This document shows, piece by piece, positions 13,611-16,288 of a stretch of DNA of 64,000 nt (within the stretch, counting starts at the first letter, position 1; each line of letters begins with the position of its first letter). Location of the stretch: NCBI GenBank assembly GCA_016218805.1, contig JACRCW010000136.1, forward strand, positions 1-64,000. The letters are read 5' to 3'. The position numbers and the translations under genes are program-made. The notes under the pieces are model-generated. The model saw only the letters and a program-made list of their open reading frames with translations, did not search any database and was not told the origin of the DNA. This DNA comes from Deltaproteobacteria bacterium (GTDB lineage Bacteria > Myxococcota > JACRCW01).

Positions 13611-13686
13611 GCCGACATAGCTCAGCCGGTAGAGCAACTGATTCGTAATCAGTAGGTCCGCGGTTCGAGTCCGCGTGTCGGCTCCA
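13611..13686 (+). tRNA. tRNA-Thr (anticodon CGT)
   Basis: 76-nt cloverleaf: GCCGACA/TGTCGGC acceptor stem, ACTGA-TTCGTAA-TCAGT anticodon arm, GGTTCGAGTCC T-arm, encoded CCA. Confidence 0.97.
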
Positions 13687-13717
13687 AGCAAAGCCCCCGA
13701 AGTCCGGGGGCTTTTTT
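13646..13717 (+). repeat. attL-like direct repeat, copy 1
   Basis: Identical to 16217-16288. Confidence 0.92.
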
Positions 13718-13718
13718 T
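13690..13718 (+). terminator. Intrinsic terminator after tRNA-Thr
   Basis: AAAGCCCCCG-AAGTC-CGGGGGCTTTTTTT hairpin followed by a T tract. Confidence 0.85.
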
Positions 13719-13746
13719 GGTTCTTGACGGCGTCATTTTCCGGCCG

Positions 13747-13788
13747 TGACCCACTGAAAAGCGACTTGACCCACTCGGTTGACCCACT
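13747..13788 (+). repeat. Three TGACCCACT direct repeats (putative integrase arm-type sites, left)
   Basis: Copies at 13747, 13767 and 13780. Confidence 0.75.
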
Positions 13789-13801
13789 CTGACGCCCAGT
13801 G

Positions 13802-14322
13802 TCCCGTTCGTTGCTGGCCCGTCTGGCCAAGGCCGGGCCTGCTGGAGCGGGTGGAGCGCGGCGTATACCGCTCTGTGACGGCCCCAGAGGCGTCGGAGGC
13901 GGCCACGCTGGCCCGCGGTGGCCAAGCGGGCGCCCAATGCAACTGTGTGCCTCCTGAGCGCCCTGCAGGCCCACGGCCTGACCACGGAACTCCCGGCAGC
14001 GGTCTGGCTCATGATTGACCGCAAGGGCCGCCCGCCCGCCATACATGCGGTCGCGATTGAGTTGGTCCGCGCCAGCGGCCACGCACGCGCTCATGGCGTG
14101 GAGGCGCGCACAGTGGATGGCGTCCACGTCCGCCTCACCACGCCCGCCAAGACGGTCGCCGACTGCTTCCGCTACAGGAAACGCGTAGGCCTCGACGTGG
14201 CGCTTGCGGCACTCAGGGACTACCTGCGCAGGTACCGAGGCGGTAGGGACGCTCTCGTCGCGGCGGCGCAGGCGGATCGCATATGGCCACTCATGCGGCC
14301 TTACGTCGAGGCGCTGTGCTAG
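13802..14322 (+). pseudogene. AbiEi-family (type IV TA) antitoxin, 5'-truncated with two frameshifts
   Basis: Three frames join into SRSLLARLAKAG/LLERVERGVYR...ATLA/AVAKRAPNATVCLLSAL..HGLTTELP...AKTVADCFRYR; extra bases at ~13838 and ~13914. Confidence 0.75.
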
Positions 14323-14383
14323 GAGCCGGCGGCTTCCTCGGCAGTGTATCGCCAACTTGAGCGTCGGGCGGGCCGTGGGAGCA

Positions 14384-14417
14384 TTGAATCGCCCGCCGGA
14401 TGTGCTAGATTCGCACA
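14384..14417 (+). promoter_or_regulatory. Probable leaderless promoter with overlapping palindromic operator
   Basis: TTGAAT-16 bp-TAGATT with extended TG; TGTGC-N7-GCACA spans the -10; ATG begins 7 nt after the -10 with no SD. Confidence 0.5.
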
Positions 14418-15521
14418 ATGGCAAGCACATGGAAGGGTCTAGGTGAAAGGGTTGCCGCGGCGCGCCGAGCCGCAGGCATCACCCAAGAGGAACTCGCATC
14501 CCGGCTGCGCCTTCAGCGAACATCTGTAACAAGGCTGGAGTCGGGGGACCGGACCGTTGATGCACTAGAACTTGCGGCCCTGGCTGCGGCGCTTCGGCGG
14601 CCAATCGGGTGGTTCGTGGGGCCTTCCGAGAACACCGTTTCCAGCCACCGAGCGGCGGCCGAACAACGTGAAGAAACGCGGTTTGACGGTTCGATGGACC
14701 TTCTCTCCTCAGACGCTCGATTCTTGACGCGACTGAAGCTGCTCCCTCATGTGAAACCATTCCATGCAAGGGTTGAATCCGTCGACCGAGCGGAGGATGC
14801 AGCTACCAGTGCGCGCCAAGCGCTCGGTCTTCCAGTTGAGCCGCTGCGCGAGTTGCCACACGTGGCTGAGCGCCTCGGAGTCTTCGTCGGTTTTGAGGAA
14901 CTGGGAGAGGGCGGGCCCGAGGGCTGTTATCGCACGCATGATGGGGTCAATGTCGCCTTGGTCAACGGGAGTTGGCCAGTCGGCCGGCGACGGTTCACGT
15001 TGGCGCATGAGATCGGGCACCACGTGCTCGCTGATGCCTATGCGGTCGACTGGCCAGAACTCGGCCAAAGCAACGGCGAGCAAATCATCAATGCATTCAC
15101 CATTCATTTTCTGATGCCGCGCGCTGGTGTGAGCAAGCGATGGACCTCGCTCACTGGTGCGGGGTCTGACAAGCGGGACGCAGCAATTGCCATTTCTGCG
15201 GAGTTTGGCGTCAGTTGGAGCGCAGCGTGTGCCCAATTGCGTCGATTCGGACTCATCGACGGCGCCGATCTCGAGCAGTTTAAGCGAAGTACTCCGCGTG
15301 AAGGTGACTACCTTGAACTCGAGGCTGCCGTACCCAACGATGTGCCGACATGTGGATTGTCGCCCTCATTCACGACGGCAGTCCTGAAGGCATTCCGCCG
15401 ATCGAAGATCAGCGAGGATAGGGCCCTTGGGATGCTGCGAGGCGCGCTAGCAGCGGACCAGTTGCCGACGCCTGCGCTTGCTCCTCTGGAGAGCATGGCG
15501 CCAGACTTGGACGCATTCTGA
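14418..15521 (+). CDS. XRE-family HTH / ImmA-IrrE (COG2856) metallopeptidase fusion
   Basis: GITQEELA...SVTRLESGDR HTH; RRRFTLAHEIGH HExxH motif. Confidence 0.92.
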   Translation: MASTWKGLGERVAAARRAAGITQEELASRLRLQRTSVTRLESGDRTVDALELAALAAALRRPIGWFVGPSENTVSSHRAAAEQREETRFDGSMDLLSSDARFLTRLKLLPHVKPFHARVESVDRAEDAATSARQALGLPVEPLRELPHVAERLGVFVGFEELGEGGPEGCYRTHDGVNVALVNGSWPVGRRRFTLAHEIGHHVLADAYAVDWPELGQSNGEQIINAFTIHFLMPRAGVSKRWTSLTGAGSDKRDAAIAISAEFGVSWSAACAQLRRFGLIDGADLEQFKRSTPREGDYLELEAAVPNDVPTCGLSPSFTTAVLKAFRRSKISEDRALGMLRGALAADQLPTPALAPLESMAPDLDAF

Positions 15522-16075
15522 TGGCGCTCCTGGTGTTTGATGCTCCGCCGCTCAGCGCGTTCGCGAGGGCTGGCCGCCTCCCACTGCTCATGGAATTGGT
15601 CGCGGGTCACGACTGCGTTACCACGAACGCCGTCCTTGCTCAGTTGCGGCAAGGTTCAAACTCCTTCCCTACGCTCGGGGATGTTGTCGCGAACCAATGG
15701 CCCCGCGAGGTGAAACTCGGAGCCCCGTCTGAGCTCCTTGCGTTCGCTGGATGCATGGACCACTTCGGCCTCACGGAGCGCGATGTTGCCTGTGCGACGA
15801 CCCTCGCGTGGGCGGAAACCAACAGTGGCATCGTGATCACTGACAATCAGGTTGTTTGCGAGGTGGCCAAGGAGCGGGGCATCCAGTGCCGTCGGAGTCT
15901 CAGCCTCGTCGCGAACGGTCTTCGCAATCGCAAGCTCGACGACGATGGAGCGAGAGACCTGGTTGACGACTTGTTGAGGGCAGGAGCGCGGTTTCCGTAC
16001 GACGGAGCCACCTTCGTCGCCTTTGCCCGGGACCGCGGCGCACTCCAGGCTTGTCCAGATGGACTTGACAGATGA
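15521..16075 (+). CDS. PIN-fold (DUF3368-like) protein, possibly catalytically inactive
   Basis: LLVFDAPPLSAFA, TTNAVLAQL, TLAWA..IVITDN; start overlaps the upstream stop (TGATG). Confidence 0.7.
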   Translation: MALLVFDAPPLSAFARAGRLPLLMELVAGHDCVTTNAVLAQLRQGSNSFPTLGDVVANQWPREVKLGAPSELLAFAGCMDHFGLTERDVACATTLAWAETNSGIVITDNQVVCEVAKERGIQCRRSLSLVANGLRNRKLDDDGARDLVDDLLRAGARFPYDGATFVAFARDRGALQACPDGLDR

Positions 16076-16092
16076 CCCACTCATGACCCACT
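16073..16092 (+). repeat. Two TGACCCACT direct repeats (putative integrase arm-type sites, right)
   Basis: Copies at 16073 and 16084, same orientation as the left set. Confidence 0.75.
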
Positions 16093-16216
16093 CCGTTCCG
16101 TTGTACAGCGTGGTCCAGCGTTGCAGTCCGTGCACTCCTGTTGTCTGCAAGCGTTTGGTTTGACTGCGAAAAAAGCCTGATTTCAACTATGGACAACACA
16201 CCCTGTTTTCGATTCC

Positions 16217-16288
16217 TAATCAGTAGGTCCGCGGTTCGAGTCCGCGTGTCGGCTCCAAGCAAAGCCCCCGAAGTCCGGGGGCTTTTTT
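16217..16288 (+). repeat. attR-like direct repeat, copy 2 (tRNA-Thr 3' half plus terminator)
   Basis: Identical to 13646-13717; preceded by GATTCC versus GATTCG in the tRNA. Confidence 0.92.

Follow-up and report, generated by a model that had tools for sequence, protein, structure and literature searches.

Cis-mobilizable elements (CIMEs) owe their first description to ICESt1-related elements in Streptococcus thermophilus, and the attP of lambda has two plus three arm sites. To our knowledge, the lineage studied here has no known related ICE or IME. In the passages of PMC5704250 that treat them, CIMEs are elements flanked by attL and attR that carry no integration or transfer genes and are thought to derive by deletion from an integrative element. 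Here we analyze a small insert at a tRNA-Thr(CGT) gene in a 64-kb stretch of DNA (the window) from an uncultured high-GC bacterium, assembled from a groundwater metagenome (assembly 92% complete). The insert is probably what decay has left of an island once served by a tyrosine integrase, and it is CIME-like.

The att sites and the insert

The sole tRNA detected in the window by ARAGORN was tRNA-Thr(CGT), the integration target (13611..13686, + strand; Rfam tRNA, 72.3 bits), whose 3′ part now comes from the left att core. A repeat search returned a 78-nt direct repeat of 99% identity between positions 13640–13717 and 16211–16288, both on the + strand. The first copy, the attL core, runs from the anticodon stem/loop to the tRNA 3′ end and through the terminator; the second, the attR core, which was recognized from repeat search, sequence, and depth, copies the tRNA 3′ half and terminator, lacks the 5′ half, and forms no tRNA gene. 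The cores differ at one position only, G at 13645 versus C at 16216, which is the middle anticodon base (TTCGTAA versus TTCCTAA). The mismatch is followed by 72 identical bases, so that 13646–13717 is the perfect block common to attL and attR. Repeat search and sequence agreed with the original prediction, which had described a duplication of the tRNA 3′ half and terminator, perfect over 72 bp and with one mismatch over 78 bp, whose identity starts inside the anticodon loop. A terminator-like hairpin is present in both cores (13690–13714 and 16261–16285), and the 6.43-Mb assembly contains exactly two occurrences of the core. A third, older copy was not found in the window, where the best other score was 26 versus 151–156 for the true copies. 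We conclude that the att structure is genuine and far from a chance arrangement. With arm repeats on the inner side of each copy, the 78-nt repeat and its tRNA 3′ part give the insert the attL and attR flanks of a CIME.

The insert between the cores is 2.5 kb long, low in GC, and single-copy in the genome. GC was 0.58–0.62 in windows within 14400–16199, compared with 0.70–0.76 upstream; the insert is compositionally foreign, and its bracketing by a duplicated tRNA 3′ part is the arrangement of a tRNA island.

Depth was taken from Logan contigs of four runs of one study; these contigs all end where the 72-nt repeat is reached. In the run that is the likely source, the left flank stood at 20.6–22.4x, the island at 22.9x, and the right flank at 22.2x, and the contig of the 72-nt repeat reached 43.6x versus ~22x for its neighbors. 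Equal depth of island and flanks, together with the doubled depth of the repeat, indicates two repeat copies per genome and an island present in essentially all cells. These values bear on the concern, raised with the original prediction, that the duplication might be an assembly artefact. The true state would then be an intact chromosomal site together with a free circle of 2.57 kb, or else two organisms would have been joined chimerically at a tRNA sequence common to both. A word graph with words shorter than 72 nt cannot tell attL plus attR from attB plus attP, and because of their short words and the 72-nt repeat the Logan contigs cannot show attB/attP junctions, and none joins across the island; the tRNA region is also common to many of the organisms sampled, with a bin depth of 5968x. 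Against an artefact, in addition to the depths, island and flank pieces co-occurred at about 2–6x in another two of the study's runs, a 2.5-kb circle without a replication gene could not hold a 1:1 copy number, and the residual likeness of the right flank to the island arm (see below) is a property of real, related DNA. We consider an artefact of either kind very improbable.

Putative arm-type repeats

Five exact copies of the 9-mer TGACCCACT lie beside the cores, all as direct repeats on the + strand. Three are on the left, at 13747, 13767, and 13780 (13747..13788), where they are putative P′ arm-type sites, and two are on the right, at 16073 and 16084 (16073..16092), as putative P arm-type sites; the copy at 16073 opens with the TGA stop codon of the PIN gene described below. 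The repeats look like integrase arm-type sites. Genome-wide, TGACCCACT is found 34 times versus 34 expected from composition. Outside the two groups at the island, this 9-mer forms no cluster anywhere in the 6.4-Mb assembly, even with one mismatch allowed, which bears out the earlier claim that arm-like repeats persist.

Similar repeat groups elsewhere were considered as possible relatives. When genomes across GTDB were scanned for TGACCCACT in three copies separated by short gaps, at least 120 loci emerged. Nearly all those read were short tandem repeats, for which a period of 16 (TGACCCAC doubled) was common. Among the matches listed, tRNAs within 600 nt numbered seven, in 6 of 120 loci, and none was a tRNA-Thr, so these were rejected. 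The viral-contig loci (n = 75) were mostly coding repeats in multiples of 9 nt or phage iteron-like arrays of the type TGACCCACTGGGT, none of them near a tRNA, and were likewise rejected. Across the phylum, paired TGACCCACT repeats were present in 2 of 400 other genomes; one proved to be a 19-nt tandem repeat and the other a 2.8-kb coding-like stretch without a tRNA, and neither was retained.

The AbiEi relic

An AbiEi pseudogene (13799..14322, + strand), located by tblastn against the homologue of the only same-family genome available (G001), begins about 10 nt past the last TGACCCACT repeat of the left arm. Residues 70–202 are read in one frame (13918–14316) with 75% identity to the G001 homologue, residues 43–68 in a second frame, and residues 31–43, as a weak match, in a third; residues 1–30 are absent. 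The relic has thus undergone a 5′ truncation of ~30 codons and two frameshifts. Its presence had been predicted correctly, but its extent is corrected here to about 13799–14322. The G001 homologue itself is recognized by PADLOC as AbiEi (E = 6.7e-69) and by Pfam as AbiEi_4 (5.4e-10). Pfam scans matched no island ORF to an AbiEii family, and the intact AbiEi with adjacent AbiEii that makes up an AbiE type IV toxin–antitoxin (TA) system is not present. In G001, the full-length AbiEi homologue lies head-to-head with a tyrosine integrase. An integrase was found beside AbiEi in one of three relatives checked, and that G001 locus has neither a tRNA nor TGACCCACT repeats.

The RmrA-like gene and its PIN partner

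The AbiEi relic is followed by an intact gene (14418..15521, + strand; Pfam, PADLOC) for a 367-amino acid protein with an XRE HTH domain and an M78 (ImmA/IrrE) peptidase domain, of the type of RmrA, the RosmerTA antitoxin. Pfam matched HTH_3 (6.7e-11) and Peptidase_M78 (1.5e-11), 16 PADLOC RmrA profiles were matched with a best E of 2.4e-20, and the HEIGH motif is present in the translation; the protein thus has the HTH plus ImmA/M78 zinc peptidase composition of an RmrA-type antitoxin. The start of the next gene (15521..16075, + strand) overlaps its stop codon, from which the pair is predicted to be translationally coupled.

This second gene encodes a 184-amino acid protein of PIN fold and DUF3368-like family, assigned from its family, an AF2 model, and Foldseek. 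An XRE-ImmA gene and a PIN gene had both been proposed and both are present, although the latter has no Pfam match of its own and is a PIN protein by family and predicted fold. Its family comprises 269 representatives at E ≤ 1e-3, and among 73 family members DUF3368 was matched in 19 and PIN in 7. The AF2 model has a pLDDT of 95, and its top Foldseek matches are PIN domains and VapC toxins, with target-normalized TM scores of up to 0.70.

The active site of this protein is altered. Residues Gln-41, Ala-90, Cys-91, and Asn-109 stand where the family has Glu, Gly, Glu, and Asp/Glu, respectively; Glu occupies the Gln-41 column in 72 of 73 sequences and the Cys-91 column in 70 of 73, Asp or Glu occupies the Asn-109 column in 72 of 73, and the window protein is the only one of the 73 with Gln, Cys, and Asn at those three columns. 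Asp-7 and Asp-108 are kept. The conserved acidic active site of VapC-like proteins, here of the DUF3368 subgroup, is accordingly incomplete. A part of PMC10440598 reports that substitution of Asp-6 and Glu-43, the equivalent sites in another PIN toxin, abolishes toxicity. With three near-invariant acidic residues replaced, the 184-amino acid protein has probably ceased to be active as a nuclease toxin.

The RmrA-like gene was found in 15 of 400 other genomes sampled from the phylum, and at 10 of 11 homologous loci inspected there the PIN partner is directly downstream. Judged from this gene order, the RmrA-like and DUF3368/PIN genes are a conserved gene pair in this phylum. An association of the ImmA node with PIN-like domains is likewise noted in a section of PMC10440598.

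Search for a recombinase, a parent, or a helper

No recombinase is encoded on the contig of the island, the eight PF00589 and two PF00239 matches of the genome all being on other contigs. Eight other island ORFs were scanned and none matched a recombinase, and Pfam scans of island ORFs on both strands returned no recombinase, relaxase, or transfer gene, in keeping with the original description of the island as lacking a recombinase gene. It therefore contains no integration/excision or transfer genes, as in a CIME, and does not have the tyrosine (or serine) recombinase of its own beside an att site that an autonomous island would have.

A cognate tyrosine integrase next to tRNA-Thr and TGACCCACT repeats, which the original prediction had proposed as a check, was not found in this genome, where none of the eight integrase matches lies beside tRNA-Thr. 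A second "tRNA-Thr(cgt)" on another contig (C103), 15 kb from an integrase, was considered as a partner site and rejected, as its sequence is unrelated. No second copy of the island was found in the genome, and no related element in 400 phylum genomes, viral contigs, or metagenome contigs. The 38-nt sequence of tRNA end plus terminator had 0 matches when metagenomes were scanned for it, and a metagenome scan for relatives of the RmrA-like protein gave 276 pattern matches, none confirmed. A parent combining an integrase, TGACCCACT arms, and this cargo was not found in the genome, the relatives, the GTDB matches listed, or the viral and metagenome scans. Elsewhere in the same genome, a tRNA-Arg on contig C5 is followed by a broken integrase, an indication that island decay recurs in this genome.

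These searches bear directly on one of the two origins originally put forward, a non-autonomous satellite that never required an integrase of its own, or has ceased to require one. A helper integrase able to bind the tRNA-Thr core and the TGACCCACT arms would excise and integrate it in trans, and a TA/defence module would thereby pass from cell to cell. The two cores and the five arm repeats have all stayed intact, open frames are kept by the RmrA-like and PIN genes but not by AbiEi, and PMC5704250 describes, in part of its text, integrase-less elements that keep att sites and are moved by related elements; in an assembly that is 92% complete, a helper could also be unassembled. Set against this are the lack of any other TGACCCACT cluster in the assembly, the absence of an integrase (0 of 8) at tRNA-Thr, the single copy of the island and the cluster of its PIN protein, which has one member on one contig, the lack of a related element, and an island depth no different from that of the flanks. 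Moreover, the two phylum genomes with paired repeats are both unlike the island, and the truncated, frameshifted AbiEi represents decay exactly at the arm boundary. Mobilization in trans is therefore unlikely, and the other proposed origin, a deletion derivative, gains support from the AbiEi cut at the arm and the integrase beside AbiEi in G001. It is, in the same way, quite unlikely that att sites, five arms, and a RosmerTA-like module, with no further parts, make up a living minimal hitch-hiker moved by an integrase that is encoded elsewhere in the community and recognizes TGACCCACT and the tRNA-Thr(CGT) core. On that reading, the PIN partner with its altered active-site residues might work other than as a nuclease.

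The right flank and a possible older island

A search for an empty-site relative among 40 relatives included no same-genus genome. The sole same-family genome, G001, shares the left flank, with two genes of 68–69% identity followed by tRNA-Thr. The right flank is not shared; different genes lie downstream of the G001 tRNA-Thr, and these map to other contigs of the genome studied here. With no close relative, and with G001 differing downstream of tRNA-Thr, there was no empty site for comparison.

Diverged flank of ~30 bp beyond the duplication had been predicted. It was found on the right side only, where similarity past the core extends for ~40 nt with a local score of 32 versus 18.0 ± 3.6 for shuffles, a score that 6 of 2000 shuffles attained, as did 9 of 1981 real windows; on the left, the flanks scored 11, under the shuffle mean. 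By alignment and shuffles, this chromosome-side flank (16289..16340, + strand) resembles the P′ arm of the island and includes a decayed counterpart of its first repeat. GC remains low (0.64–0.67) to the right of attR up to about 17800, a region that holds a gene pair, DUF433 (16379–17062; Pfam 9.1e-13) and DUF5615 (17079–17414; 3.1e-13), both on the + strand with a GC of 0.65–0.67. The pair may be all that survives of an earlier island inserted at this tRNA.

Such tandem accretion would make the attR copy and the DNA beyond it, with DUF433/DUF5615, an older related island and the 2.5-kb element a later arrival at the rebuilt tRNA, both integrases having been lost. The one-sided alignment with the P′ arm, the lowered GC, and the TA-like character of the next two genes are consistent with this, and portions of PMC5704250 describe decayed elements arrayed in tandem at a single att site. 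However, the window holds no third core copy, no relative marks where the chromosome backbone resumes, and the likeness of the flanks could alternatively go back to the time when attP arose. Accretion is thus a tentative proposal, which we think has a reasonable chance of being correct without being the expected outcome; it adds to the explanation as a decayed remnant rather than replacing it.

Discussion

The account of the island as a decayed remnant starts from what is directly seen at the locus, namely the repeats, the cargo, the lack of a recombinase, and the decay. A tyrosine integrase would have inserted a small genomic island into the 3′ part of tRNA-Thr(CGT), from an attP that bore a tRNA copy, anticodon stem through terminator, with TGACCCACT arms (two plus three). 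Recombination of attP with the tRNA would have rebuilt the tRNA at attL and left a dead 3′-half copy at attR. A later deletion from just inside the left arm may then have taken the integrase, any excisionase, and the first ~30 AbiEi codons, after which AbiEi would have been frameshifted and its AbiEii partner lost. One and the same deletion probably clipped AbiEi and cost the island its integrase. Because no parent element was found, we infer this deletion rather than see it, as we do the order of events and the presence of the integrase in the lost DNA. The counterpoint to a remnant is that the five arm repeats and the 72-nt core are perfect and the RmrA-like and PIN frames uninterrupted, which is also expected of a still-mobilizable element; by a rough calculation, it is not improbable that neutral decay would have left the arms perfect. 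On its own the island is immobile, and only three ways out would be left to it: the arrival of a related integrase, accretion with a related element, or RecA recombination across the two 72-nt repeats, which is rare.

The element is of a known kind, and loss of the integrase followed by decay is an ordinary fate for such islands. Its import beyond annotation is small: it offers a clean example of the decay of a tRNA-borne island in which att scars outlast the integrase, and it illustrates that a chromosome can come to hold a stranded defence/TA module whose toxin is probably disabled. If excision were real, the island would be among the smallest integrase-dependent passengers known and would give a handle on an uncharacterized integrase with a defined 9-nt arm site; were it a hitch-hiker moved in trans, it would amount to a "mini-island", the counterpart of a MITE among elements that depend on site-specific integrases.

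Comparison with known systems

The relic resembles the AbiE (AbiEi/AbiEii) system in being 75% identical over residues 70–202 to a PADLOC-matching AbiEi, but it is a pseudogene without the N-terminal DNA-binding part and no AbiEii gene follows. With RosmerTA (RmrT/RmrA), the 367-amino acid gene shares the XRE HTH plus ImmA/M78 build of RmrA and a coupled small downstream gene; the partner here differs in being of PIN fold (DUF3368-like), and with three near-invariant acidic residues replaced its toxicity is doubtful. As in islands and prophages whose tyrosine integrases target tRNAs (lambda-type attP; P4-like), the 3′ part is duplicated from the anticodon stem-loop, the tRNA is rebuilt, the cargo is low in GC, and short direct repeats occur on both arms. 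Unlike them, the island is without an integrase gene, the defining component, and its identity block includes the terminator and fades into diverged flank. From CIMEs it differs in its size of only 2.5 kb, its TA/defence-type module, and its uncultured high-GC groundwater host, and its derivation and cis-mobilization are putative. Judged by its sequence, the island nevertheless fits the CIME definition, having kept attL and attR and lost its recombination genes, and like a CIME it has attL and attR, no integration or transfer genes, and a site able to collect elements in tandem.

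Attachment site and arm-type repeats

The sole tRNA in the window, tRNA-Thr(CGT) (13611–13686, plus strand), was called by ARAGORN and scored 72.3 bits with Rfam. A repeat search of the window gave a direct repeat of 78 nt whose copies differ at a single base (13640–13717, attL; 16211–16288, attR), running at attL from the anticodon stem through the tRNA 3′ end to a terminator hairpin; each core copy holds such a terminator-like hairpin. The sole mismatch is the middle anticodon base (G at 13645, C at 16216), after which 72 bases are identical. Repeat search and sequence thus agree with the original prediction of a 72-bp perfect duplication of tRNA 3′ half and terminator (78 bp with one mismatch), with identity starting inside the anticodon loop. 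The assembly (6.43 Mb, 170 contigs) holds these two core copies and no others, and the intervening 2,493 bp are present only once in the genome. Island GC is 0.58–0.62 (windows lying within 14400–16199), compared with 0.70–0.76 in upstream DNA.

The 9-mer TGACCCACT is found on the plus strand three times in the P′ arm (13747, 13767 and 13780; 30–63 nt right of attL) and twice in the P arm (16073 and 16084; 127–138 nt left of attR). Genome-wide, its 34 copies equal the 34 expected by base composition, and the two island groups are its sole clusters, also with one mismatch allowed and unrelated 22-nt tandem repeats set aside. Because TGACCCACT clusters nowhere else in the genome, the predicted arm-like repeats are taken as real and specific to the island. 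One-mismatch clusters on contigs C108 and C163 were rejected as relatives; these are arrays of a partly palindromic, GGGGGTCACACCCC-type 22-nt tandem repeat (C108:3340–3560 and C163:42580–42760), unrelated to the island. An attP, whether circular or ancestral, would have two sites on one side of the core and three on the other, in the order two, core, three, the layout also found for the arm sites of lambda-type attP.

The possibility that the duplication is an assembly artefact was assessed by depth in Logan contigs of four sequencing runs, all belonging to one groundwater-metagenome study; the runs are not independent, because one may be the assembly source. Depths in the best run were similar for the island, a single 2,559-nt contig (22.9×), and for its left (20.6–22.4×) and right (22.2×) flanks, and the 72-nt repeat formed a separate contig at 43.6×, which argues against an artefact. 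The depths fit two repeat copies per genome, with the island in essentially every cell. For such values to come from a separate circle, 2.5 kb of DNA lacking a replication gene would have to keep an exact 1:1 ratio to the chromosome, which is implausible and also speaks against an artefact. Logan contigs end at the 72-nt repeat, so neither attB nor attP junctions can be displayed in them.

Possible older use of the site

Beyond the cores, the right-hand flanks could be aligned over about 40 nt (score 32, shuffles 18.0 ± 3.6; 6 of 2000 shuffles scored as high, as did 9 of 1981 real windows), and the left-hand flanks gave no alignment in the same comparison; the similarity beyond the core, predicted as ~30 bp of diverged flank, is on the right side only. 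As the chromosome-side flank resembles the island P′ arm, earlier use of the site by a related element is suggested by this likeness. If the site was used before, a second TA-like pair right after attR (16379–17414, plus strand, GC about 0.66), encoding a 227-aa DUF433 protein with an N-terminal extension and a 111-aa DUF5615 protein, may be older island cargo. No third core copy survives in the window, and the chromosome backbone past attR is visible in no relative; G001, a genome of the same family, matches the left flank only. In the G001 locus (L249, contig C482) compared with window positions 11944–13569, tRNA-Thr(CGT) lies within about 570 nt after the DUF4388 gene. In the window, a minus-strand M20 peptidase gene separates the two, so the genera differ on the left of the tRNA as well.

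AbiEi relic and RmrA-like/PIN pair

The AbiEi relic (about 13799–14322, plus strand) was delimited by alignment to a 203-aa G001 homologue (PADLOC AbiEi, E 6.7e-69; Pfam AbiEi_4, 5.4e-10). One frame (13918–14316) is 75% identical to residues 70–202, a second covers residues 43–68 and a third aligns weakly to residues 31–43; residues 1–30 have no counterpart at the island locus. This three-frame, truncated alignment bears out the predicted relic. Profile scans of island ORFs found no AbiEii downstream, and the island is not an intact AbiE system. The relic starts ~10 nt past the last left-arm repeat; in islands of this kind, the integrase usually lies between P′ arm and cargo. In G001 (L023:8219–10545, contig C46), full-length AbiEi and a tyrosine integrase (Pfam 4.9e-22) are arranged head-to-head, and an apparent AbiEii N-terminal fragment, recognised by eye, comes next. 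A tyrosine integrase adjoins AbiEi in one of three relatives with the gene. The G001 locus has no tRNA within the 20 kb fetched and no TGACCCACT repeats, and is therefore a weak parallel.

The predicted XRE-ImmA gene (14418–15521, plus strand) encodes a 367-aa protein with XRE HTH and M78/ImmA peptidase domains by Pfam and an intact HEIGH motif; it matched 16 PADLOC RmrA profiles (best E 2.4e-20). The adjoining gene (15521–16075, plus strand), predicted as PIN, encodes a 184-aa protein which is PIN by fold but has no Pfam or NCBIfam match of its own. Its AlphaFold model (pLDDT 95) matched PIN domains and VapC toxins among PDB structures, and an exhaustive HMMER search gave 269 representative relatives (E ≤ 1e-3). 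Among 73 aligned family members, 19 carry DUF3368 and 7 carry PIN.

The window protein retains D7 and D108 and has four residues unique to it in this alignment: Q41 (E in 72 of 73), A90 (G in 70), C91 (E in 70) and N109 (D/E in 72). For another PIN toxin, a paper on TA networks (PMC10440598) reports that substitution of D6 and E43 abolishes toxicity. Given that report and the altered columns, three of which (Q41, C91 and N109) are near-invariantly acidic in the family, the window toxin is probably disabled; repurposing of the protein is another possibility. Both reading frames of the pair are intact despite the altered PIN columns.

An RmrA-like homologue was present in 15 of 400 other genomes sampled from the phylum, and in 10 of the 11 same-phylum loci inspected (L155–L165) the next gene downstream encodes a DUF3368/PIN partner; none of these loci has a tRNA within 1.5 kb. 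The two genes form a conserved, recurring module. Pairing of ImmA-type antitoxin nodes with PIN-like domains is also noted in PMC10440598.

Search for an integrase and a parent element

A profile search of the own genome returned eight PF00589 and two PF00239 matches, none on the island's contig, and the island's minus-strand and minor ORFs gave no recombinase match, in agreement with the predicted lack of a recombinase gene. Without an integrase, the island is not autonomous. Own-genome integrases adjoin tRNA-Met (C85), tRNA-Gly (C114) and tRNA-Arg (C5); none of the matches lies beside tRNA-Thr, where the original prediction proposed to look for a tyrosine integrase. The 3.4-kb contig C5 carries a further decayed tRNA island (2522–3248), in which tRNA-Arg(TCG) precedes a tyrosine integrase gene interrupted by three TGA stops and one TAG stop; this integrase is 52% identical to the G001 integrase adjoining AbiEi. 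Among the assembly's 71 tRNA calls, ARAGORN gave a second tRNA-Thr(cgt), quite different in sequence (C103:17159–17231), which may reflect a calling error or foreign DNA binned with the genome.

In 40 relatives, only the tRNA and the AbiEi segment were matched by island DNA. Scans for the arm repeats in viral contigs, in 400 phylum genomes and, among the matches listed, in GTDB genomes returned almost nothing but tandem or coding repeats unrelated to the island. Five viral contigs (L179, L188, L191, L214 and L236) hold irregularly spaced, partly palindromic TGACCCACTGGGT copies that look iteron- or operator-like and are unrelated to the island. Two metagenome scans found no related element, and the 90% cluster of the PIN protein has one member, from one contig.

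Proposed history of the island

The island is likely a decayed remnant. In the simplest history, an integrase-carrying island would have inserted at tRNA-Thr, a single deletion would have taken the integrase and the AbiEi 5′ end, and AbiEi and the PIN active site would have decayed afterwards. The alternative, a mini-element still mobilised in trans, would account for the 72 nt of the core and all five arm repeats being still perfect, and for RmrA-like and PIN frames uninterrupted next to an AbiEi with two frameshifts in about 520 nt. We regard it as improbable, with no integrase beside tRNA-Thr in the own genome, TGACCCACT clustered at the island only, a single island copy and no related element in the scans of 400 phylum genomes, viral contigs and metagenome contigs. 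By our rough estimate, it is not improbable that the arms (45 nt) would stay perfect through a few percent of neutral change; the intact sites are hence compatible with continuing mobility but are not evidence for it. Were indels as dense as in AbiEi, 1.66 kb should hold about six (our own arithmetic), so either the RmrA-like/PIN pair has been under selection or AbiEi was dead on arrival.

As a decayed remnant, the island is an ordinary case of a kind of element already known. By sequence it resembles a CIME (cis-mobilizable element; PMC5704250), having attL and attR but no genes for integration or transfer; an origin by deletion from an integrative element and mobilisation in cis are putative here. 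It resembles RosmerTA in its antitoxin and differs in its PIN partner, which is probably inactive.
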